Part shown: positions 47,789-62,979 of the stretch, piece by piece
Layout: each line of letters starts with the position of its first letter
Numbering within the stretch: position 1 is the first letter of the stretch
Assembly: GCA_965660855.1 (NCBI GenBank)
Contig: CBFIBM010000001.1
Location: forward strand, 128,001-192,000
Reading direction: 5' to 3'
DNA length: 64,000 nt
DNA from: an uncultured bacterium
GTDB lineage: Bacteria; Fidelibacterota; Marinisomatia; Marinisomatales; UBA1611
Program-made: the position numbers and the translations under genes
Notes under the pieces: generated by a model
What the model was told of the DNA's origin: nothing
Databases searched by the model: none
What the model saw: the letters and a program-made list of their open reading frames with translations, nothing else

Positions 47789-49654
47789 TTGTCTCAACAG
47801 CCATTTCAAACTGAAGTTAGTCAGCTTTTAAAGTTAATAATCCATTCCCTATATTCTCATAAAGAGATTTATTTGAGAGAATTAATCTCAAACTCATCAG
47901 ATGCTATAGATAAACTTCGTTACTTAACCTTAACAAAAGATGATTACAAACAGATTTCATTTGAGCCAAAAATTAGTATTGAATTCGTAGAAGGCGATGA
48001 ACCAACTATGACAATCACAGATACTGGAATTGGTATGTCAAAAAAAGATTTAGAGGATAATCTAGGAACAATAGCTAAATCAGGAACAAAAAATTTCTTA
48101 TCAAAACTTTCCGGTGATGCTAAAAAAGATTCTCAATTAATTGGTCAATTTGGAGTTGGTTTTTACTCAAGTTTCATGGTTGCAAAAAAAGTCGATGTAA
48201 CTAGTTTAAAGGCAGGAAATAAAGAAGCGTGGATGTGGACAAGTGATGGTGAAACTGGGTTTGAAATTAAAAAGGCAGTTAAAAAAGATTTTGGAACTTC
48301 GATTAAATTGTATTTAAATGATGAAGGAAAAGAGTTTGCTAGTAGATGGAGATTAGAAGGTCTAGTTAAAAAATATTCAGATCATATTGATGCCCCAATT
48401 ATGCTTACCTATGAGGATACTGAATATGATGATGAGGGCAAAGAAAAAAGCAAAGAAACAAAGACAACACAAATAAATGATGCCAAAGCTTTCTGGACTC
48501 GATCTAAAAATGAATTAAAGAAAAAAGATTACAATGAATTTTACAAATCGTTATCAAATGATGTTTCAGATCCGCTTGACTATGTACACTTTAGAGCGGA
48601 AGGTAATTTGGAGTTTACTATTTTATTTTTCATTCCTAAAAATGCATCTCCTGACATTTATAGGGCAGATTATAAATCTGGGGTGAAATTATATGTAAAT
48701 AGAGTTTTTATAACTGAAGATGATAAAGAACTCTTACCTAGTTGGTTGCGTTTTGTGAAAGGTATTATCGACTCTTCTGACTTGCCATTAAATGTAAGCA
48801 GGGAAATCCTTCAACAAAATCGAGTAATGGCAAAAATTCGATCTAATTCTGTAAAAAAGATTCTTGATAAACTAAAAACAGTTTCTACAAAAAAAGAAAA
48901 ATACGCCGAGTTTTTTGAACAGTATGGAAGATTGATTAAAGAGGGTGTTTATCAAGATTTTGAACATAAGGACGCACTTACTGAATTATTGAGATTTAAA
49001 TCGACGAAAGAAGATGGTCTTACCTCATTACGTGAATATGTAGGAAGAATGAGAGAGGATCAGAAATCAATCTATTATATAACTGGACAAAATGAGATTT
49101 CGCTTAAAAACTCTCCATTACTAGAAATTTATAAACAGAAAGATATAGAAGTCCTAATTCTAGATGATGAAATCGATGAAATTATTATAACATCTGTTCC
49201 AAAATATGATGAAAAAGATTTGAAGTCTGTTAAAAGAAGTGGTGCAGCTGAAGACTTTTCTGAAAATAAGGATGCTGATAATGGAAAAGAATTATCATCA
49301 GTAGTTAAAAAATTAAAGAAAGTTTTAGGAGATAATGTTAAAGATGTTAAAATATCAAACAGATTAAGCGATTCTCCATCTTGCGTTGTTGCAGATGAGA
49401 ACGATCCTACGGCACAAATGCAAGAGATAATGCGATCTATGGGGCAAGCCGATATGCCACAGGTTAAACCAATTCTTGAAATCAACCCTGAGCACATAAT
49501 TGTTAAAAAATTAAAAGATATGACAAAAAAGAAAGCTTTTGATGATATCGCTTTTCTGCTTTTTGAACAAGCTTTGATACAAGAAGGTGTTAAATTAGAA
49601 GATCCTTCTGGCTTTGTGGAAAGGTTAAATAAGGCAATTTCAGGTAAGCTATAA
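47789..49654 (+). CDS. htpG: Chaperone HtpG (Hsp90)
   Basis: LRELISN.SDA, DTGIGM, IGQFGVGFYS and DLPLNVSRE motifs; GGAG RBS, TTG start. Confidence 0.97.
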   Translation: MSQQPFQTEVSQLLKLIIHSLYSHKEIYLRELISNSSDAIDKLRYLTLTKDDYKQISFEPKISIEFVEGDEPTMTITDTGIGMSKKDLEDNLGTIAKSGTKNFLSKLSGDAKKDSQLIGQFGVGFYSSFMVAKKVDVTSLKAGNKEAWMWTSDGETGFEIKKAVKKDFGTSIKLYLNDEGKEFASRWRLEGLVKKYSDHIDAPIMLTYEDTEYDDEGKEKSKETKTTQINDAKAFWTRSKNELKKKDYNEFYKSLSNDVSDPLDYVHFRAEGNLEFTILFFIPKNASPDIYRADYKSGVKLYVNRVFITEDDKELLPSWLRFVKGIIDSSDLPLNVSREILQQNRVMAKIRSNSVKKILDKLKTVSTKKEKYAEFFEQYGRLIKEGVYQDFEHKDALTELLRFKSTKEDGLTSLREYVGRMREDQKSIYYITGQNEISLKNSPLLEIYKQKDIEVLILDDEIDEIIITSVPKYDEKDLKSVKRSGAAEDFSENKDADNGKELSSVVKKLKKVLGDNVKDVKISNRLSDSPSCVVADENDPTAQMQEIMRSMGQADMPQVKPILEINPEHIIVKKLKDMTKKKAFDDIAFLLFEQALIQEGVKLEDPSGFVERLNKAISGKL

Positions 49655-49681
49655 ATTATTGATCTAACTTAGGTACATATT

Positions 49682-50455
49682 ATGATAACAATTTTATCTC
49701 CAGCAAAAAAAATATCTAAAGATTGCTCTGCAGTTACCAAAAGTTATCATGTACCTGAGTTTTTAGATAATTCTAAGGTTTTAGTAGATAGTCTAAAAAC
49801 CTTAGATCCGTTAGATTATATGTCATTGATGAGTATTAGTGAGCCATTAGCAAAATTAAACTGGGAACGTATGCAGCAATGGACTTCCAATTTTAATTCA
49901 CATAATTCAAGAGAAGCAATCTACTCATTTAACGGAGACACATATTCTGGATTTGATGTTGATTCATTAAGTAATAAAGATATACAATTTGCAGATTCAA
50001 ATGTTAGAATATTATCTGGGCTTTATGGTCTTTTAAAGCCTCTAGATCTGATAATGCCATATAGATTAGAGATGGGAACAAAATTTGAAAATATTAAAGG
50101 TGAAAATTTATATGAATATTGGGGAAGTTTATTAGGAGAAAAAATTTGTAAAGAGTTAGAATCTCATAAATCTCAAATTATAATAAACTGTGCTTCTATT
50201 GAATATTTTAAATCTGTGAAATTAGAAGCAGATAGAATAAAAGTAATTACTCCTCAATTTAAAGATTGGAAAAATGGTAAATTAAAAATAATATCTTTTT
50301 ATGCAAAAAAAGCAAGAGGGATGATGGCAAGATTTATCGTTAAAAATAAAATTGAAAATAAAAATGATATTTTAAAATTCAATTTAGGAGGTTACAAATA
50401 TCAACCTTCTTTGTCATCACCATTAGACCCTGTTTTTACCAGAAACCAAGCCTAA
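49682..50455 (+). CDS. yaaA: Peroxide stress protein YaaA
   Basis: LSPAK, ILSGLYGLL.PLD...PYRLEMG and AKKARG.MAR motifs. Confidence 0.93.
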   Translation: MITILSPAKKISKDCSAVTKSYHVPEFLDNSKVLVDSLKTLDPLDYMSLMSISEPLAKLNWERMQQWTSNFNSHNSREAIYSFNGDTYSGFDVDSLSNKDIQFADSNVRILSGLYGLLKPLDLIMPYRLEMGTKFENIKGENLYEYWGSLLGEKICKELESHKSQIIINCASIEYFKSVKLEADRIKVITPQFKDWKNGKLKIISFYAKKARGMMARFIVKNKIENKNDILKFNLGGYKYQPSLSSPLDPVFTRNQA

Positions 50456-50465
50456 AATTATAGTA

Positions 50466-50984
50466 TTGAAAAACATACTTTTAATTTTTTTCATATTTTT
50501 ATCACTGATAAATGCAGAATCGACATTCGATAAATTTAAGCATGAGGAAATTATTAAAGTAATTTTAACTGATTATTTTAAGAATGTGGATGAAAAGAAT
50601 ATTGAAGGTATACTAGATCATTTAACGTCTGAGCTTATCATGAATTTTGGTTCAGATGGAGTTACTCGTATTAAATCGAAAACAGAATTTTACCCTATTT
50701 TTGAATCCTGGAGCAAATCTAGTAAGGGTCAATTTAGTTTTACAAGGATTGATTCTATTAACATTCAAGAAACTCATATTGTAAAAAATTATACTGCTGT
50801 AGCAGATGTTACATATACTAGAATGGATAAAAATGGAAATCCTATCCGAACAGAAAGGTCTTTATATCACTTTGTGCGTGGTACAGGCTATTACGGTAAG
50901 CCATTGAAATTCATTTGGGAAGTGATGATAAAATGGCTAAGGCCTTGGAAGATTTATATGATTTCCAATATAGCATTAGATTGA
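50466..50984 (+). CDS. Secreted NTF2/SnoaL-like protein, copy 1
   Basis: Signal peptide; DYF..VDEKN.E...; DVTY.R...RSLY.FV...WKIYM. Clear paralog of 51644..52114. Confidence 0.65.
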   Translation: MKNILLIFFIFLSLINAESTFDKFKHEEIIKVILTDYFKNVDEKNIEGILDHLTSELIMNFGSDGVTRIKSKTEFYPIFESWSKSSKGQFSFTRIDSINIQETHIVKNYTAVADVTYTRMDKNGNPIRTERSLYHFVRGTGYYGKPLKFIWEVMIKWLRPWKIYMISNIALD

Positions 50985-50991
50985 AAACATT

Positions 50992-51567
50992 TTAAAAATC
51001 TATTTTAAGAGCCCTATCTTCATTATTAATGTTATCTTTTTTAATATATGAAAAAGATTTATGCTTGATTTGTTCCTTATCAAAATATTCTGTTAATTTT
51101 CTTAAATATAAGTCCTCCATTCCTTCTTCGTATCCAGATTCTTTGTGAATTATTTTACCTTGTTTATCTATTAATAAAAAAGTTGGGTAACCTATAACTT
51201 TAAACTGTTTTGCAATTTTTGAAGAAGGGTCAACAGCAACATCAAACTTATATTTTCTCTTTTTTATATATGGCCTGACTTGATTAATGATATTAGGTTT
51301 ATTAACATTTACAGCAAGAACTGTTAATCCTGCATCTTTAAATTCTTTATTTAGCTGATTTAAATAGCCTAACTGGCGTTCACAATATGTTCACCATGTA
51401 GTCCAAAAATTAATAATCATCGGACCATCTGAATGAAAATCAGAAAGCTTTGCGTACTCTCCATCTACCATTCGAATTCTGGAGTTTCCAATCTTTTTTC
51501 CTTGAAGGATTATTGGTGAGAGGAGGTAGGATAGAAGTAGTATGGGTATAAATAACTTATTTTTCAT
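50992..51567 (-). CDS. Exported TlpA/thioredoxin-fold selenoprotein, copy 1 (UxxC; Sec at codon 59)
   Basis: Not in the ORF track. ATG 51567, signal/anchor, GPMIINFWTTW-TGA(51391-51393)-TYCERQLGYL...VLAVNV...GYPTFLLIDKQGKI, TAA at 50992; 191 aa with readthrough. Confidence 0.88.
51361..51390 (-). promoter_or_regulatory. Candidate bacterial SECIS hairpin, copy 1
   Basis: UGAA-C-GCC-[AGUUA]-GGC-UA-UUUA; the loop starts 16 nt after the UGA and has G at loop position 2. Confidence 0.7.
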
Positions 51568-51643
51568 GTACCTAATTTTATGATAATCAAATGTAAATAT
51601 TAAATAAAATTTTCCAAATTTTTTTCTTAAATTGGATTAAAAA

Positions 51644-52114
51644 TTGAACCTTATGAAAACTCATATTATATTATTTTTAACTTTTTGCATTAATCATAAT
51701 TTTATTTTTGGAATTGATAAACCGAAGGATGATAAAAAAATTATCAGTTCATCCCTTATAGATTATTTTTCTAAAGTTGACGAAAAAAATCTTGAAAGCA
51801 TGTTAAATTATATTGAATTACCTTTTATTTTAAACTTTGAATCAAAAGAACCACTCCATCTAAAAAATGAAGACGAATTCTTTGAGGTATTTGAACTTTG
51901 GAGCAAGTCTGAGAAAGCAAATTTCTTAAAAACTGTATTAGATTCTGTATCTTACACTGAAATTCATAAGGATTTTATGTGGGTTGGGGATGTTACCTAC
52001 TCTAGAGTAAATATAAAAAGTGGGATTAAAGAGACAAATAGATCACTTTATTATTTTGTGAAGAAGAAACATGACTGGAAGATTTATATGGTAAGCAGTG
52101 TTGATTTTGATTAA
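51644..52114 (+). CDS. Secreted NTF2/SnoaL-like protein, copy 2
   Basis: DYFSKVDEKNLE...FELWSKS.K..F...DS...DVTYSR...RSLYYFV...WKIYM. Start may be ATG 51653. Confidence 0.65.
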   Translation: MNLMKTHIILFLTFCINHNFIFGIDKPKDDKKIISSSLIDYFSKVDEKNLESMLNYIELPFILNFESKEPLHLKNEDEFFEVFELWSKSEKANFLKTVLDSVSYTEIHKDFMWVGDVTYSRVNIKSGIKETNRSLYYFVKKKHDWKIYMVSSVDFD

Positions 52115-52133
52115 AAAATAATTAGTAGTGTTT

Positions 52134-52700
52134 TTAAAAGTCTATATTAATTGCTTCTTTTTTGTTATCATTCTTTCTCTCATATTCAAAAGCTTCATAT
52201 TCGATATTCTCATTGGTAAAGTAAGATTTGAGAGCTTCTAAATATTCTTCTTCCGTACCATCTCCATAACCTGCACTTTTATGTATTACTTCGCCATTTT
52301 TGTCTATAAGATAAAATGTAGGGTAACCTTTTACATCAAATTGTTTGGCTAATTTAGAAGTTGGATCCAAGGATACATCAAATTTATACTTTCTTTTATT
52401 TATGTATGGCCTTACTTGATTTACTATTTGAGGTTTATTTGAATTGATGGTAAGAACTTTTAAACCAGTCTTACTAAATTTTGAATTAATTTGATCTAAA
52501 TAGCCTAACTGGCGTTCACAATTTGGTCACCACGTTGTCCAGAAATTAATGATCATTGGCCCATCTTGGTTAAAGTCAGACAACTTTGCATATTCTCCGT
52601 TTAACATTTTGATCCTTGCAGTGGGAATTTTATTGTCCTTAAGTGCAAGGCCAACAAAAAAAGACAGGAATACTAATGAAGAAAGAATATGTTTTTTCAT
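52134..52700 (-). CDS. Exported TlpA/thioredoxin-fold selenoprotein, copy 2 (UxxC; Sec at codon 58)
   Basis: The track shows only the 78-aa tail. Full frame from ATG 52700: MKKHILSS...GPMIINFWTTW-TGA(52527-52529)-PNCERQLGYL...GYPTFYLIDKNG; 188 aa. Confidence 0.88.
52497..52526 (-). promoter_or_regulatory. Candidate bacterial SECIS hairpin, copy 2
   Basis: 24 nt identical to copy 1 (TGTGAACGCCAGTTAGGCTATTTA) at the same distance from the UGA. Confidence 0.7.
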
Positions 52701-52820
52701 AATTAATGTTAAAATTATAATTTTAATCTTTAAAAATTACTATAAAATCATTTTAAATATAACTTTATTTCTTGTAAATAAATAATGGAAGAGAATACTT
52801 TTTAATCATTAATATTATAG

Positions 52821-54029
52821 ATGGATTTGTGTATCAGTCTAATCAGAAATATTGTAAAGCATAATATACTAGCTTTACTGTTTATTATAATGCACGATCA
52901 AACCTTTGGATGTCGTTTATGGTCAATTTGTACTAAAAATAATAAAAGTATTTCTCAATTGCCATATGAAGAAAAAGACTTGGTTTATAATCAATTAAAC
53001 TCATTTTTTTTACAATCAAATATGATGAATAATGGATGGTCGTTATTAGACTATCCTGATAGTACATCTAATTTTATAACACCGATAATTAGATCTGAAA
53101 CCAAAGCTTATATTGATTCAGTACGATATTGGGCAGTAGTAGACTCTTTATTACTCAATGGTTCTGGTAAAATTGGAATGGGGCATTTACGACTTGCCTC
53201 TTCTGGAATTAATAGTATCCCAAATCCACATCCTTGGATGTTTTATAGAAACCAAAAATCTTACGCAATGATGCATAATGGAACTATTGATAAAAACGTA
53301 TTATACAATCTTATTACAAACAATGGCTCCGATATCACTTGGTTGCAAAATCACGAGCCGGAAACTTTTGATGGTTCTGATTGGCAGAGTGATGGTTGGG
53401 TTCAGGTGGTTGATTCAGAATTACTAATGCTTTTTATCATGCAGCAAGTTGAAAATGAAAATGATATATATTTAGGACTACAATTAGCACTTTCAAATTT
53501 GATGTCTCAAGGGGTTGTGGCTCATCAATTAAATTTAATTCTTTCCGATGGGAGCTTTCTTTACTGTTTTGGTGGTAGCAATGGTCTCTCTTATGCGGAA
53601 TCTTCTGATCATTATGCTGTTATGACGCAGCCTGAAAACAGTGGTCTATTAACTTGGACTGGATTAAATAATGGTGAGTTAGTAGTTATCAGTGATAATG
53701 GTTTAGAAAAATATCCAGATTTTATACAATTAGCCAATCAAGATGGTGTCCTCATACCTCGAAATCCTATTATTATGACACCAGCATTTCCTAATCCATT
53801 TAATAGTTCTTTACAGTTCTCATTTGAAAATATTCAAGATACCCCAATTATAAATATATCTATATACAATATACTTGGAAATCTTGTTGATACCATATCT
53901 AAAGAAAATATTAGAGAAAATGATTTCATTAGATGGAGTCCGCCCTTGGGAACAGCATCTGGAACCTATTATATACATGCAAAAATTAAGAATTCTAAAT
54001 TAAATCAGAAGATTTTGTTTATAAAATGA
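52821..54029 (+). CDS. Secreted class II glutamine amidotransferase (Ntn hydrolase, EgtC/YafJ-like) with C-terminal sorting domain
   Basis: Signal-like N-terminus, then CRLW (Cys at 52911), GHLRLASSG..NPHP, MHNGTI, VDSE; AFPNPFN. Confidence 0.8.
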   Translation: MDLCISLIRNIVKHNILALLFIIMHDQTFGCRLWSICTKNNKSISQLPYEEKDLVYNQLNSFFLQSNMMNNGWSLLDYPDSTSNFITPIIRSETKAYIDSVRYWAVVDSLLLNGSGKIGMGHLRLASSGINSIPNPHPWMFYRNQKSYAMMHNGTIDKNVLYNLITNNGSDITWLQNHEPETFDGSDWQSDGWVQVVDSELLMLFIMQQVENENDIYLGLQLALSNLMSQGVVAHQLNLILSDGSFLYCFGGSNGLSYAESSDHYAVMTQPENSGLLTWTGLNNGELVVISDNGLEKYPDFIQLANQDGVLIPRNPIIMTPAFPNPFNSSLQFSFENIQDTPIINISIYNILGNLVDTISKENIRENDFIRWSPPLGTASGTYYIHAKIKNSKLNQKILFIK

Positions 54030-56754: not shown

Positions 56755-59700
56755 ATGCAAAGAGCGATAATAACATTGCTCATGTTGTCTTTTGGCGTAA
56801 GTTTGTATGCAAATGATACAGCACCTCGTCAAAAGGGCGATTCTTTTCAGTATGGATTACCTACTTACAAAAGTCCTGAGAATAGAACGGAAGAATATGA
56901 GCTATACATGGTTGATACCTATGGTGATGGTTGGGACGGTTCCACCTTAGATCTTAACATGAATGGAGTGTCAGTTGCGACTGGATTGACTGTTGATGGA
57001 GAATCTAACAGTTTTTACTTTAATGCTGACGATTATGATTATTTAACCACTGGATTTACCATCAGTACTAGCTGGGCTAGTGAGTTATACTATGGTATCT
57101 ACGATTCAGAAGGCTACCTTCTTTATGATGGTTATGGAAATAGTGCTGAAGTTGATATCAGCTCTCATCCAGACATGACCACGCAATGGACAATAGATTC
57201 CAGTGAAGAAAATGTATTTCATAATCCTAGTTTTGAAGCAGGCATTGCAACCTGGGATAGACATCCTGACTATGATTGGGCAATTGCAACTACAGGAGAG
57301 GGAATTTATAACTCTGATGCAACATTTACTGCGTACAGTGGGGATAATTCTTTTAAAATGTGGGCTTCATGGACCGGGCTTGAAAATAATGTTTTCAAAG
57401 TTTTTGAAGGAGATATTGCAGCTCAATTAGCGGGTGAAACTTTCACTATTTCAGCTCACATGATGAGTCATGCTGATGATTTGTTAGGTGAAGGAACTCA
57501 CGCTAAATTAGTTGCAAAATATTTTGGACCTGGACCAAATGGCGATGGATCGAACTGGTGGGAGACATTTATGTTCATGGATGAGTCCGAATATTTAGTG
57601 GGTTCATTAGCTACAGCAACAGAGTGGACAGAATACTCTCTAACAACCACTATACCTGAAGGGGCATATCACATTGAAATTGGCTTTACTCTTAAAAAAG
57701 ATGCTGATGGAGGTGGCTCTGTGTATGTGGATAACCTCATTGGAGATTGGGTAGAACCAGTTGAGGTTATTGAAAATGTTTATTTTTCAGAATATGCTGA
57801 AGGTTCAAGTAATAATAAATATTTAGAAATTTTTAACGGTACCGGAGCGGCGATTGATTTAGCAGATTTCGTTGTTTTAGGTAACTACAATGGTAACGGA
57901 TGGTCAGAAACAATTCCATTTGCAGTTGGTACAATCGTAGAAGCAGGTGATGTTTATGTTATCGCAAATAGCTCAGCAGATGAAGCTATTTTAGCGGAAG
58001 CAGACGTCGCATTTGGTTATGGAGCCTACGATCCAGAAGCTGGCACGGCATATGTCACCTCATTTAATGGTGATGATGTAAGAGCACTAGCGATGGCAGG
58101 AGATCCTTCTCTTATTGTGGATCAAATTGGTACTCTAGATTTTGATGGAGATGGTATTGAAGGTGAAGGAAATGAAGATGATCCAGGCAGTGGTTTTGAT
58201 GCTGCAGGTGTTTCTGATGCAACAAAAGATCATACATTAACTAGAAAGCCAGGTATGCTTGGTGGAAATATGGGCAACTGGAGTCAGTCTGCCGGAACCG
58301 ATGCTGAAACCAGTGAATATGTCGTCCTAGATCAAAATGATTGGACTAGCTTAGGTTCTCACAGCAATGAGGTTGTAGAAGTTTGTGATTTCACGGAAGT
58401 AACACTTAATATCGCAGATTCTTACGGTGATGGTTGGAATGGAAACATCCTCACTGTTGGTGATCTTAACTTTACATTGGATGGAGTTGCCGATGATGGT
58501 TCTTCTGCCAGTTTTGATTTGTGTCTAGAAGATGGTGCTTACGCAGTAACCTGTGGAGGTGGAAGCTATCTATCAGAAGTAAGCTGGGAAATGTTAGCCG
58601 CAGATGGCACGGTTCTTCTTGCTGGTGGTGCGCCATATGAAGGATTCCTTCAAATTGGTGAAGTAGTAGATGTGCTAGGTTGTACAGATCCAGAAGCATT
58701 AAATTATGATGAAACAGCAACACTCGACGATGGTACTTGTGTTTATGCAGGTGAGGATTGTGCAACGGCATTAGTCGCTGCAGCCGGTTCAAATGAAGCA
58801 CCAAGTGCTCCATTCTGGTATACTTATACTGCAACGTTAACTGGAACTGCAACAATTTCTTCTGTTGGTGGTGGAGTTGATACTCAAGTTTACGGTTATA
58901 CTGGGGCATGTGATGCACTTGTAGAAGTTGGATTTGGTGATGATGAGGGTGGGGGACCTGAGTGGTCATCCATCATGGTCCTTGATGTAGTAGAGGGTGA
59001 ATCTTACTATATAAATTGGACTGATTATTGGTCACCATCTGGTTTTGTATGGACCTTAGAGGAAGCACTTTATCCTGTAACTCCACAAAACCTTACAGCT
59101 GAAGCTGGAATGGATAACGTATATCTAGCCTGGGATGCTGCTGAACCTGTTGGACGATCATTCGTTGAGATACAAAATGATAGACAAGCAAGAGCTGAAT
59201 ATCAAGCTGAGAAAAAAGCGAGTCTTTATCCAAATAGATCAACAGAAGTACATCTTAATAGATATAGCATTAATCCAGATTATGATCCTGAATTCAATAA
59301 CACCAGAACTAATAATGTAGTGATTAATTTAGGTGGTGGAACTTGGGATTCAGAGATTTCATGGAATATCACCAATTCAGAGGGAACTGTGGTTGCCGAA
59401 GGTGGTGCCCCAATAGAGAACTTAGAATTGGTCCTTGAAGATGGTACATATAACTTTAATGGTTTTGATTCCTATGGTGATGGATGGAATGGAAGTGCTG
59501 TGACTGCGACAAATGCAACACAAGTATTTCTTTTCTGGTGGTTAGATACCGGCTCAGAGGGCACTGCAGAGTTTGCAGTTAACGATGGTGCTGCAAATTT
59601 ATATCTTTCCAATATAAATTATGATCAAGATACTCAAATGATGAGTGTTGATGTGAACAACGATGGTACACTATGGGCCTATGGTGGCGACGTAGCTCCG

Positions 59701-62700
59701 TTTATTGGATCTGTTCCAAATGGAGATTGTCAAGAACCTGGTTCAATTGGACAATCTGTTCCACAGCCACTTGCGCCTGGGTCGTCTTATAATTTTGCAT
59801 TTGATATCGATTTAGTAGATATTCTTGGATATGGTGTGCATCCAGTAGGTGCTATGGTTGATTGGTCTTGTGCAGTCCCAGAACTGGATGAGAATGATAA
59901 CACTATTGGGGGAGAGATAACTCTTGTTGATCCATTAGATGGTATTACCTTCTCAGTTTACAGAGAGGATGCTGCTTCCGGTACATATGCTTTAGTTGTA
60001 TCAGGTCTTGAATCTGAAATGTTTTTGGATGAATCAGTAGTCGGCGGTACGGGTTATTGTTATTATGTGACTCAAACAGCTGCAGAAGTTGAATCTGGTG
60101 CATCTAATATTGCATGTGCAACTCCATATGGTTCAGATGCTTTTCCAGCTCCTACAGCATTAGCAGGTGAAGCGGATGGATATGATGTGATGCTTTCTTG
60201 GACAGCTCCTGATTTAACAGGCTGGGAGCCTCCTAGGCACAATTCACGATTTGCTCCTTCCATGAACAAACCGATGACTCATACCCCTTCCAATACAGAA
60301 CATACAACACCTCCAGCTACAAGACAGGGTGGAGATACTTTTGAAACTGCTACAGTAATAGATGCACTACCTTACGTAGATAATGGATCTACAGTAGGAC
60401 TTGCTGCAGACTATGGACCATATGCAGACTTAACCACTTTAGTTTGTGAGTTTGGAGATACTTACTATAGTGCAACCTCGACTGCAGCAGGTCCGGATGC
60501 AGTGTATTCTATAGACCTCGCGGAAGATGCATTCGTAAATATTTCCCTGTGTGGGTCAGGTTACGACACTGGTCTTGGAGTGTTTAGCTCCGATGGAGTT
60601 CTTGTTGCAGCAAATGATGATTTCTGTTCATTTCAATCAGAGGTTACATGTTCTATGCCTGCTGGAATGTATTATATTGTTGTCAGTGGTTGGGGAACGG
60701 ATGCAGGAGATTATGTGCTTAACGTAGGTACTGTTGACCCTCCATCACCAGTTGCTGGATATAATGTATACAGAGATGGAGAGATGGTTGGTTATGTGGA
60801 AGGTGTAGATGAAACATCTTTTTCAGAATTTGTATACAGCCCTGAGATGCCTGAAGGTGGAACATATACATACGCAGTTTCTGCTTATTATGATGTTCAA
60901 GATGCTTCTTCAGTGCTTTCTGACCCTGTGGATGTAACAACTACTGCTCCACCATTTGAGTGTGTTGCACCAACAAATCTAACAGCTGAAAATCAAGGCA
61001 ACGATGTTATGTTGAGTTGGGATGGACCAGCAGGTGGGCCTACATGGTTTACTCACTTTGATGGAACTGTAAACAGCGGAGTTGGTACAGCGACAGGATT
61101 GTTTAGCTTAGAAGCTGCTGTAAAGTTTGGTCCAGAAACGACCTTAGACTTAATGGGTCTCTCATTAACACAGGTTGCTTTTATGACAAGCGATGTAACA
61201 GCTTTATTTAAAGTCATGATTTATGACCCAGTTTCAATGTTACCGGTTGATTCAACTGATGTTATTGATCCATCAACCTTAATTGTTGGTGATTGGAATA
61301 TTGTTGATTTACCTAATCCAATAGCCTTAGATGGTTCTGAGGTGATGTTTGGTTACAAGGTAACTGTGACTGCAGAGGGAACATATCCTGCTTCAATGGA
61401 TTTACAGTCTGATCATAATGGTATGGATAACTTAATTGCGGGTTTTGGATCACCAATGCAAAGTATGCTTGATGCATACGCTATTGATGGAGGTTGGGCA
61501 ATTGCTGGTTATGCAGATTATGGTCAAGGTCAATCCATTGTTTCATTAGATCCTCCAGTTTTTGACAATGTCATTAACCCTGGAGATTTTGATGTTAGGC
61601 ATCTAGCGAATCCGTTAGAAGTCTCGTTACCTGTTGAACAGATGAATCGTGCTTTATTGGGTTATCATGTTTACAGAAATGATACCACTATTGCAACTGT
61701 ACCACCTTCAGAAACATCATATGATGACTACGATGCTCCATGGGGAACTGTAGAGTATTATGTTACTGCAGAGTATGATGATACGGAAGATTGTGGTGAG
61801 TCTGATCCTTCAAATGTTGTTTCTATCGATCTAGCAAATAACCCACCTTCTGCGGTGAATTTAATTGCGCCACCAAATGGTGCAACCTTCACTATTAATG
61901 AAGGTAATATGGATCAGGGCAATATGTTTGTATGGTCACCTTCTAGTGATGCAGATAATGATCCTATCGAGTATTACCTAGGTGTAGAGACTGAAGTTTT
62001 GGGAGATACCTTGGATGAGTGGTTTCCAGAAAACGCACTGCAAAACGGTGACTTTGAAGATGGAACAGATCATTGGTTCTTCTACCCTCCTGAAGCAACA
62101 AACACCTCATATGATGAGGATATGGAAATGCTCATGATTGGTGGACTGAATAGTGGAGATAATACTGAAAATAATGTGTACCAAGAATGGCCAGGAGATG
62201 CCTTACCTGTAGGTACTCACTTTGAAGTATATGGTGAGGTTATGTCCCCAGCTGATGATTTCATTGCTGGAGATAACCACTTTGTATTGTTTGCTAAGTA
62301 TTTTGATTCTAACTGGGGAATGATTCATATGGATCATTCTGAACCAATGAGCGCACAAAATGCAACAGCAGATATGTATCATGAACTGGAATTTGAATCT
62401 ATAGTTCCAGAAGGTGTTGCTGTAATGCAAGTCGGTGCCATGTTTGTACAAGCTACACCGGATCACGGTGGTATGGTAGGAATAGATGAAATATACATGC
62501 ATGTTCCAATGACTGTTACTGGCTTTGAAATATCAAACAGTATGTTTGGTGAATTGATGCTAGAAACTCAAGTTACTAACTTGACTGTGGAATGGGACGT
62601 ATGGGCATTTGATGGTTATGATCCAACTCCATCAACGGGTTCACGTACATTCACGGTGGATGCTAGTGATCTTCTGTCTGTGAATAACATTGCGTTACCA

Positions 62701-62979
62701 ACATCATACGCATTGCATAACAACTACCCTAACCCATTTAACCCAGTGACAAATATCTTGTATGATATTCCTGAGTTAACTGATGTTAAGTTAGAAATCT
62801 TTAATGTCATGGGACAGCGTGTCAGAACTCTTGCAGAGGGTAAGCACGAAGCCGGACGTTATCAGATTGTTTGGAATGCAACCAATGATATTGGTGAAAG
62901 TCTATCTTCTGGTATGTATATATATCGTATACAAGCCGGAGACTTTGTAAGTGTGAAAAAACTTGTCTTAATGAAGTAA
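56755..62979 (+). CDS. Giant (2074 aa) acidic secreted multidomain protein: CBM-like x2, lamin-tail domain, D(S/T)YGDGW modules x3, CARDB-like, PPC-like, split FN3 x3, C-terminal sorting domain
   Basis: GGAGG RBS; signal peptide; lamin-tail motif FSEYAEGSSNNKYLEI; NYPNPFNP C-terminus; no catalytic motif recognised. Confidence 0.85.
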   Translation: MQRAIITLLMLSFGVSLYANDTAPRQKGDSFQYGLPTYKSPENRTEEYELYMVDTYGDGWDGSTLDLNMNGVSVATGLTVDGESNSFYFNADDYDYLTTGFTISTSWASELYYGIYDSEGYLLYDGYGNSAEVDISSHPDMTTQWTIDSSEENVFHNPSFEAGIATWDRHPDYDWAIATTGEGIYNSDATFTAYSGDNSFKMWASWTGLENNVFKVFEGDIAAQLAGETFTISAHMMSHADDLLGEGTHAKLVAKYFGPGPNGDGSNWWETFMFMDESEYLVGSLATATEWTEYSLTTTIPEGAYHIEIGFTLKKDADGGGSVYVDNLIGDWVEPVEVIENVYFSEYAEGSSNNKYLEIFNGTGAAIDLADFVVLGNYNGNGWSETIPFAVGTIVEAGDVYVIANSSADEAILAEADVAFGYGAYDPEAGTAYVTSFNGDDVRALAMAGDPSLIVDQIGTLDFDGDGIEGEGNEDDPGSGFDAAGVSDATKDHTLTRKPGMLGGNMGNWSQSAGTDAETSEYVVLDQNDWTSLGSHSNEVVEVCDFTEVTLNIADSYGDGWNGNILTVGDLNFTLDGVADDGSSASFDLCLEDGAYAVTCGGGSYLSEVSWEMLAADGTVLLAGGAPYEGFLQIGEVVDVLGCTDPEALNYDETATLDDGTCVYAGEDCATALVAAAGSNEAPSAPFWYTYTATLTGTATISSVGGGVDTQVYGYTGACDALVEVGFGDDEGGGPEWSSIMVLDVVEGESYYINWTDYWSPSGFVWTLEEALYPVTPQNLTAEAGMDNVYLAWDAAEPVGRSFVEIQNDRQARAEYQAEKKASLYPNRSTEVHLNRYSINPDYDPEFNNTRTNNVVINLGGGTWDSEISWNITNSEGTVVAEGGAPIENLELVLEDGTYNFNGFDSYGDGWNGSAVTATNATQVFLFWWLDTGSEGTAEFAVNDGAANLYLSNINYDQDTQMMSVDVNNDGTLWAYGGDVAPFIGSVPNGDCQEPGSIGQSVPQPLAPGSSYNFAFDIDLVDILGYGVHPVGAMVDWSCAVPELDENDNTIGGEITLVDPLDGITFSVYREDAASGTYALVVSGLESEMFLDESVVGGTGYCYYVTQTAAEVESGASNIACATPYGSDAFPAPTALAGEADGYDVMLSWTAPDLTGWEPPRHNSRFAPSMNKPMTHTPSNTEHTTPPATRQGGDTFETATVIDALPYVDNGSTVGLAADYGPYADLTTLVCEFGDTYYSATSTAAGPDAVYSIDLAEDAFVNISLCGSGYDTGLGVFSSDGVLVAANDDFCSFQSEVTCSMPAGMYYIVVSGWGTDAGDYVLNVGTVDPPSPVAGYNVYRDGEMVGYVEGVDETSFSEFVYSPEMPEGGTYTYAVSAYYDVQDASSVLSDPVDVTTTAPPFECVAPTNLTAENQGNDVMLSWDGPAGGPTWFTHFDGTVNSGVGTATGLFSLEAAVKFGPETTLDLMGLSLTQVAFMTSDVTALFKVMIYDPVSMLPVDSTDVIDPSTLIVGDWNIVDLPNPIALDGSEVMFGYKVTVTAEGTYPASMDLQSDHNGMDNLIAGFGSPMQSMLDAYAIDGGWAIAGYADYGQGQSIVSLDPPVFDNVINPGDFDVRHLANPLEVSLPVEQMNRALLGYHVYRNDTTIATVPPSETSYDDYDAPWGTVEYYVTAEYDDTEDCGESDPSNVVSIDLANNPPSAVNLIAPPNGATFTINEGNMDQGNMFVWSPSSDADNDPIEYYLGVETEVLGDTLDEWFPENALQNGDFEDGTDHWFFYPPEATNTSYDEDMEMLMIGGLNSGDNTENNVYQEWPGDALPVGTHFEVYGEVMSPADDFIAGDNHFVLFAKYFDSNWGMIHMDHSEPMSAQNATADMYHELEFESIVPEGVAVMQVGAMFVQATPDHGGMVGIDEIYMHVPMTVTGFEISNSMFGELMLETQVTNLTVEWDVWAFDGYDPTPSTGSRTFTVDASDLLSVNNIALPTSYALHNNYPNPFNPVTNILYDIPELTDVKLEIFNVMGQRVRTLAEGKHEAGRYQIVWNATNDIGESLSSGMYIYRIQAGDFVSVKKLVLMK

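Follow-up and report, generated by a model that had tools for sequence, protein, structure and literature searches.

A tandem pair of genes for predicted exported thioredoxin-fold selenoproteins with UxxC active sites in an uncultured marine bacterium of the Neomarinimicrobiota

A 64,000-nucleotide stretch of DNA, referred to here as the window, corresponds to positions 128001–192000 of contig C1 in a metagenome-assembled genome of Candidatus Neomarinimicrobiota (SAR406) and contains two paralogous minus-strand genes, A and B, each of which is interrupted by a TGA codon at the position where a thioredoxin (Trx)-fold enzyme would carry its nucleophilic cysteine. We consider it highly probable, at roughly 0.88, that the two genes encode exported Trx-fold thiol-disulfide oxidoreductases of the TlpA/ResA/DsbE type, with selenocysteine (Sec, U) at the nucleophilic position of the CxxC motif, and that they belong to the family known as “Prx-like 1.” Comparison with homologs indicates that UGA at this site has been conserved as a sense codon in a protein under selection and that the genome is competent for Sec decoding. 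The assembly comprises 2.09 Mb, is 84% complete, and has a G+C content of 31%.

Gene A occupies 52134..52700 of the minus strand and encodes a TlpA/ResA-like Trx-fold selenoprotein, predicted to be exported, of 188 aa with the active site W-U-P-N-C; its paralog, gene B, lies at 50992..51567 on the same strand and encodes a TlpA/ResA-like selenoprotein of 191 aa, likewise predicted to be exported, with the active site W-U-T-Y-C. When TGA is translated as U, the genes consist of 188 and 191 codons, respectively, with one in-frame TGA in each. The putative Sec codon of gene A is codon 58 (52527..52529, minus strand) in the context NFWTTW-TGA-PNC, and that of gene B is codon 59 (51391..51393, minus strand) in the context NFWTTW-TGA-TYC. 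Past this codon the frames remain open for 130 codons in gene A and 132 codons in gene B, crossing the sequences KGYPTF and IGYPTF, respectively. The full-length proteins share 57% identity (108/191), and both start with a basic segment followed by a hydrophobic stretch. An initial annotation, made from the letters of the window and a list of its open reading frames (ORFs), had described two minus-strand paralogs with these TGA contexts and about 130 open codons beyond the TGA, through the GYPT motif, and the coordinates, the frames, and the identity between the proteins all agree with that description. It had also stated that the genes escape ORF calling, which is borne out by translation with genetic code table 11, where each gene is split into an N-terminal ORF of 57 or 58 aa and a short C-terminal ORF, and by public protein sets, where the products are truncated or carry W at the Sec site.

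The TGA is a conserved feature of a group of homologous genes. When 54 genomes of the same family were searched with gene A, with stops read through, the 15 closest homologs, at 45–99% identity, were found in 13 of the genomes (its own genome counted), and every one of them contains exactly one internal stop, which is always TGA and always the codon right after FWTTW, a consistency that greatly exceeds chance expectation. The next 15 matches, at 36–40% identity, are stop-free and read WATW-C-EPCK, with TGT or TGC at the Sec column in all 15, which supports the proposal that the TGA occupies the position of the nucleophilic Cys. These Cys paralogs, represented in the present genome at C1:266138–266653, share the length, the architecture, and also the [IV]DF end of the TGA-containing genes at the above identity, but they differ in having Cys (TGT/TGC) at the site, in having no hairpin behind it, and in forming a clade of their own. 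In a maximum likelihood (ML) tree of 46 rows (14 TGA genes, 15 Cys genes, and 17 proteins from databases, without G058, whose locus contains ambiguous bases), the Sec and Cys clades were separated with a support of 100/100. Genes A and B fall into different subclades, characterized by UPNC/UPYC and UTYC, respectively, and the tandem pair would therefore be old. The A-type and B-type subclades have long been separated in the tree, each with its own dipeptide. The suggestion of the initial annotation that these two dipeptides, PN and TY, might confer different redox tuning is plausible.

In addition to the TGA itself, the sequence behind it has been maintained. The ratio of nonsynonymous to synonymous substitution rates (dN/dS, or ω) was calculated by the Nei–Gojobori method among the 15 Sec genes, for which dS was computable in 47 of the 105 pairs. 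The median ω over these usable pairs was 0.21 downstream of the TGA and 0.20 upstream of it, and the two unsaturated pairs gave downstream values of 0.065 (G041/G004) and 0.154 (G052/G054). These values point to purifying selection on the sequence 3′ of the TGA. In a scan of wider genome contigs, the single close relative, at 63% identity, has hit coordinates identical to those of locus L019, so that the two are evidently one stretch of DNA; the remaining matches of that scan, at 37% identity or lower, were distributed across many phyla. Among the genomes searched, there was no evidence of the Sec subfamily outside this family.

The genome has the components expected for the decoding of UGA as Sec. 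A tRNA-Sec was detected in the assembly at 63.3 bits (gathering score, 47), and its anticodon was assigned as tca by ARAGORN; selA (494 bits) and selB (303 bits), which are mutually adjacent, and selD (389 bits) all exceed their cut-offs. These genes are located on contigs C16, C19, and C25, and the window contains none of selA, selB, selD, and tRNA-Sec, as had been noted initially. The selD gene (C19:7427–8353, locus L016) has one in-frame TGA as well, and SelD of this genome is probably a selenoprotein too. Elsewhere in the genome UGA can be regarded as a stop, because TGA closes 229 of the 1291 stop-to-stop frames of at least 200 codons, prfB for release factor 2 (RF2) is present (512 bits), and the sole tRNA with the anticodon tca found by ARAGORN in the assembly is tRNA-Sec. 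In two orthologs of the present genes, G042 and G012, the true stop is also TGA. The prfB match (C1:80274–81317, locus L148) has one TAA within the matched frame. The Sec interpretation of the initial annotation is thus favored by the machinery, by the alignment with Cys homologs, and by selection, and the opposite situation that it had envisaged, a genome lacking Sec machinery in which the sequence after the TGA evolves neutrally, is contradicted on both counts.

A candidate Sec insertion sequence (SECIS) hairpin is located behind the UGA of each gene. In gene A it extends over 52499..52517 of the minus strand, starting from the 10th nucleotide after the UGA, with the sequence GAACGCC-AGUUA-GGCUAUU, and the same 19 nt are found in gene B at 51363..51381 of the minus strand. 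The helix in both genes consists of three contiguous G-C pairs and two pairs past an internal loop. In helix columns 19–37 of alignment A1, which contains the 15 Sec genes, 88.8% of the cells are paired, compared with 20–51% when the 3′ side is slid, and compensatory changes on both sides occur in three of the six helix pairs. A pairing or covariation score as high as that observed was obtained in none of 500 shuffles, and RNAalifold, unaided, predicts the identical helix. Among the 15 genes of the Cys clade, 43% of the cells in columns 19–37 are paired, which is not above the slid versions. The loop is composed of 5 nt, A-G-U-U-A/G, in which A26 and the second nucleotide, G27, are invariant in all 15 rows, and the codons forming the stem are rare in the genome (CGC, 3.2% of Arg codons; GGC, 8.9% of Gly codons). 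The bacterial SECIS (bSECIS) model, as given in the legend of Fig. 2 of a review (PMC13188914), has a G within the first two nucleotides of the loop and a distance of 16–37 nt from the UGA to the apical loop; the review further gives an upper stem of 4–16 bp and a minimum free energy (MFE) of −7.5 kcal/mol or lower, and where it treats the model it mentions that certain selenoprotein genes fall outside it. The hairpins of genes A and B agree with the model in loop size, in the loop G, and in the UGA-to-loop spacing, which is 16 nt.

The family to which genes A and B belong has been known from marine sequence reads. Zhang et al. 2005 (PMC1088965) listed, from the Sargasso Sea, a “Prx-like” family with a Trx-like UXXC motif and also a UXXC “thiol-disulfide isomerase-like” family, and Table 2 of the Global Ocean Sampling (GOS) study by Zhang and Gladyshev 2008 (PMC2398784) contains “Prx-like 1” (pfam00578, UxxC) with 225 selenoproteins, a family that is also known as “Prx-like thiol:disulfide oxidoreductase” and is tabulated in the review PMC13188914. 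In Dataset S1 of the GOS study (supplement file 3), 14 FWTTWU sequences are placed between the lines “#Prx-like 1” and “#Prx-like 2.” The genes studied here share with the GOS family the assignment to pfam00578 and the UxxC motif, in the forms UPNC and UTYC, and full-length reads of the dataset match the orthologs, one of them ending in ...INIDF. The novelty implied by the initial annotation is consequently not upheld, because the FWTTWU subfamily was already printed in that dataset as “Prx-like 1” in 2008: genes A and B belong to a marine selenoprotein family that was then catalogued to the motif level, and they do not represent a new kind of system. They differ from the GOS entries in that the sequence of the gene B type, WTTWUT, has 0 occurrences in Dataset S1, and the passages of these papers that concern the subfamily give no genome, taxon, neighbors, or tandem arrangement. 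A family known from reads in 2008 can now be assigned to a genome, to a taxon (SAR406/Neomarinimicrobiota), and to a gene neighborhood that is conserved; this placement by genome and taxon, the pattern of public misannotation, and the conserved NTF2-like neighbor described below constitute the remaining value of the present findings.

Searches for related folds place the products among the TlpA/ResA/DsbE-type proteins. Pfam AhpC-TSA (PF00578) matches with E values of 1.3e-22 for A and 2.9e-24 for B, and Redoxin (2.6e-20 for A) and Thioredoxin_8 match as well; among solved structures, those with the most similar sequences are ResA (4nmu, E = 1.7e-18), DsbE/CcmG, and TlpA (1jfu, E = 1.4e-9). An AlphaFold2 (AF2) model of the gene A product, built on 27 sequences with a predicted local distance difference test score (pLDDT) of 85.8, shows a hydrophobic helix near the N terminus (residues 4–16), a Trx fold to which the GYPT loop contributes Pro127, an extra helix at residues 149–163, and a low-confidence tail at residues 164–188. 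W57, C61, and P127 are invariant in the 27-sequence alignment. The terminal D-F is kept at 90% or more in alignment A4, the Cys clade (...KVDF) included, and the tail, which corresponds to window positions 52134–52210, may act as a short C-terminal docking motif. With Bacillus ResA, DsbE/CcmG, Bradyrhizobium TlpA, and cd02966, the products share the Trx fold with extra N-terminal strands, the W-[C/U]-x-x-C motif, the cis-Pro, and a putative N-terminal export or anchor segment, and DsbD is encoded in this genome. In contrast to those proteins, A and B carry Sec in place of the first Cys and a C-terminal extension of ~40 residues that ends in a conserved I-D-F, and no genes for cytochrome c maturation or a copper center adjoin them. 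The proteins of the NCBIfam families NF041054 (WAxxUGC), NF053656 (TUGYCR), and NF040769 (SelL-related) likewise have a Trx fold with Sec in the redox motif, but A and B are not members of these families, given that their scores (30 and 39 bits for a cut-off of 300, 16 and 25 for one of 100, and 24 and 20 for one of 120, respectively) are far too low and that the motifs (UGC, TUGYC) differ.

Based on these relationships, a mechanism can be proposed in which SelB with Sec-tRNA(Sec) would decode the in-frame UGA, aided by the hairpin that starts 10 nt downstream, and the ribosome would then continue for ~130 codons across the cis-Pro loop to the genuine TAA stop. The N-terminal hydrophobic segment would export or anchor the protein, which might be periplasmic or membrane-anchored. 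There, Sec would serve as the attacking residue and the Cys at the +3 position as the resolving residue of a periplasmic reductant, and the resulting selenenylsulfide might be re-reduced via the three-domain DsbD of this genome, which is found on contig C2 and has N-terminal, transmembrane, and thioredoxin domains. Oxidized proteins of the periplasm or envelope, or peroxide-derived oxidation products, are conceivable substrates, and the reaction might be tied to the flanking htpG–yaaA stress genes and the NTF2-like neighbor.

As to function only, the same selenoproteins might act as thiol peroxidases or remove peroxide-derived oxidants, as the name “Prx-like” would imply, rather than reduce protein disulfides. 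Sec is favored in peroxide chemistry, and the pair is situated directly behind htpG and the peroxide-stress gene yaaA, the latter of which recurs in 10 of 13 further loci searched, with one duplicate among them. The top Pfam match is AhpC-TSA, and the family has been filed as “Prx-like 1” in the GOS study. Against this stands the peroxiredoxin (Prx) signature PxxxTxx[C/U], quoted as PxxxTxxU in the review PMC13188914, which does not occur in these proteins: the segment G-P-M-I-I-N-F-W-T-T-W-U has Thr at −3 and Ile, not Pro, at −7, and the motif is a Trx-like WUxxC accompanied by a cis-Pro. Moreover, the nearest structures are those of the reductases ResA, DsbE, and TlpA, and synteny in a single family is weak evidence. 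Because the PxxxTxxU signature is absent, we rank the reductase function above the peroxidase function, which appears rather unlikely.

Several points weigh against the assignment of genes A and B as TlpA/ResA/DsbE-type selenoproteins. The hairpins of both genes fall short of the bSECIS limits for stem and MFE, with −3.9 kcal/mol for the 36-nt segment, and single-sequence folds of the 70 nt after the TGA are no better than shuffles (z = −0.84 and +0.72). Among the 15 orthologs, only eight reach −7.5 kcal/mol in the 36-nt segment, G018, G052, and G054 fold otherwise, and the covariation is based on just these 15 related sequences. The SECIS evidence can be judged moderate overall, and it is weakest for genes A and B themselves. 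In terms of protein families, the products remain below the NCBIfam cut-offs for ResA (85.8 and 95.7 bits against 170), DsbE (55 and 45 against 123), and TlpA (38 and 50 against 230), and since no NCBIfam cut-off is reached, their physiological role is defined by no equivalog and the named proteins can be taken as superfamily relatives only. The Sec assignment was made by sequence comparison for an uncultured organism, and the substrate, the electron donor, and the mode of export discussed above are likewise deduced from homology. Finally, a tRNA-Trp is missing from the ARAGORN predictions for the 84%-complete assembly, as is a tRNA-Ile.

Interpretations in which the TGA is not decoded as Sec fare considerably worse. 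It is very improbable that genes A and B are pseudogenes arising from nonsense mutations, or that the UGA terminates translation to leave short peptides and C-terminal fragments. Such readings could appeal to the split ORFs under table 11, to the weak SECIS of the window genes, and to a 126-aa C-terminal fragment (P0061) that was named “thioredoxin-related protein” by the Joint Genome Institute (JGI), but the TGA is shared by all 15 orthologs, which differ at up to 55% of their residues, no further stops or frameshifts are present, and ω is ~0.07–0.2 on either side of the TGA. In the case of termination, moreover, the C-terminal fragment would be without the entire active site.

The public protein sets bear on the remaining interpretation, a change of the genetic code. 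A search of 5.8 billion proteins yielded 70 matches at E ≤ 1e-20, in 58 of which the Sec site is occupied by W (57 recognized by a regular expression and, in addition, P0025, with FWPTWW; these entries lie within P0003–P0059). One match, P0037, has L at the site, three belong to the Cys clade, and eight, including P0061, are fragments that start 3′ of the TGA; a Cys form closer than 40% identity was not found in this search. Nearly all of the W-forms come from contigs no longer than a few kb, and two of them, P0022 and P0029, run over a real TGA stop into unrelated tails. From these features we infer that the W-forms are code-4 gene models picked by a metagenome gene caller. The least credible reading, that UGA is reassigned to Trp or Gly in this organism as the public W calls imply, could draw on the 58 W entries, on the 31% G+C of the genome, and on the tRNA-Trp missing from the incomplete assembly, but it is countered by the presence of RF2 and the many long frames closed by TGA (229/1291), by window genes that are intact under table 11, by the restriction of the tca anticodon to tRNA-Sec (63 bits), by the overrun stops of P0022 and P0029 on their short contigs, and by the alignment of the site with a catalytic Cys, not with Trp. 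The pseudogene, code-reassignment, and split-gene readings were accordingly rejected on the conserved TGA, selection, RF2, and the occurrence of tca only on tRNA-Sec. Standard gene calling, therefore, still mishandles selenoproteins of abundant uncultured marine bacteria, and predictions of active site and function made from the public entries are wrong because almost all of those entries are truncated or have a false Trp at the catalytic site.

Each of the two genes is accompanied by an ORF for a predicted exported protein of the NTF2/SnoaL-like type, which is encoded on the plus strand. One of them, at 51644..52114 (156 aa, with its ATG at 51653), is convergent to gene A across a 19-nt gap, and its paralog o172, at 50466..50984 (172 aa), is convergent to gene B across a 7-nt gap. 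The genome has no further copies; both proteins are hydrophobic over a segment near the N terminus and lack a conserved Cys. Neither ORF could be confidently assigned to a family with Pfam or NCBIfam, and a weak match to SnoaL_3 was obtained for eight of 17 members of the NTF2-like group; the assignment comes from an AF2 model with an NTF2-like fold (pLDDT 86.6) and from Foldseek matches to NTF2-like proteins with E values of ~1e-6. By coordinates, all but one of the 15 Sec genes face a convergent NTF2-like ORF at the 3′ end (loci L019–L024 and L048–L053); at the exception, G061, yaaA takes the convergent place and the NTF2-like ORF is on the opposite side. The nearest relatives of o172 are the ORFs that flank genes of the clade sister to gene B, and the Sec gene and the NTF2-like gene may thus have been duplicated as a unit.

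The genes htpG and yaaA (47789–50455, plus strand) directly precede this cluster, and in the other loci htpG is found before yaaA where the locus extends far enough. In the region from 38 to 64 kb of the window, all other ORFs of at least 110 aa are on the plus strand, except two that overlap larger plus-strand genes, and these plus-strand neighbors include pantothenate/CoA genes, htpG, yaaA, a sigma-70 factor, a Na/sulfate symporter, and proteins with tails of the type IX secretion system (T9SS). A T9SS C-terminal sorting domain is present in a 402-aa class-II glutamine-amidotransferase-like protein (52821–54029, plus strand), whose gene is divergent from gene A, and also in a 2074-aa protein with a lamin-tail domain (56755–62979, plus strand). 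The conservation of neighbors represents synteny inside one family and is therefore no proof of a functional link. From the 14/15 pairing, the apparent duplication as a unit, and the place behind htpG–yaaA, one could speculate that the Sec-redoxin and the NTF2-like protein form a dedicated two-protein redox module of the envelope, specific to one SAR406 family, in which the cup of the latter would bind or present a small oxidized substrate and the conserved, disordered I-D-F tail of the former would dock it to a partner shared with the Cys paralogs, an idea to which we attach little weight.

Sequences of this region also occur in transcript libraries. Words sampled from 50466–52800 occur in six RNA-library runs as well as in many runs of marine metagenomes, and contigs from four metatranscriptome libraries, which come from four studies and whose runs are labeled freshwater, were compared with the window. 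The TGA of gene A is bridged by contigs of all four RNA libraries and that of gene B by contigs of three of them, and no difference is listed at either TGA in the bridging contigs. Because such libraries may hold DNA, these contigs are merely consistent with transcription. The bins 51558–51635 and 52728–52800 are uncovered in all four runs, which is not taken as evidence of transcript ends. Base 52113, which belongs to the stop codon of the 156-aa NTF2-like ORF, is absent from the contigs of three of the four RNA libraries, a strain difference.

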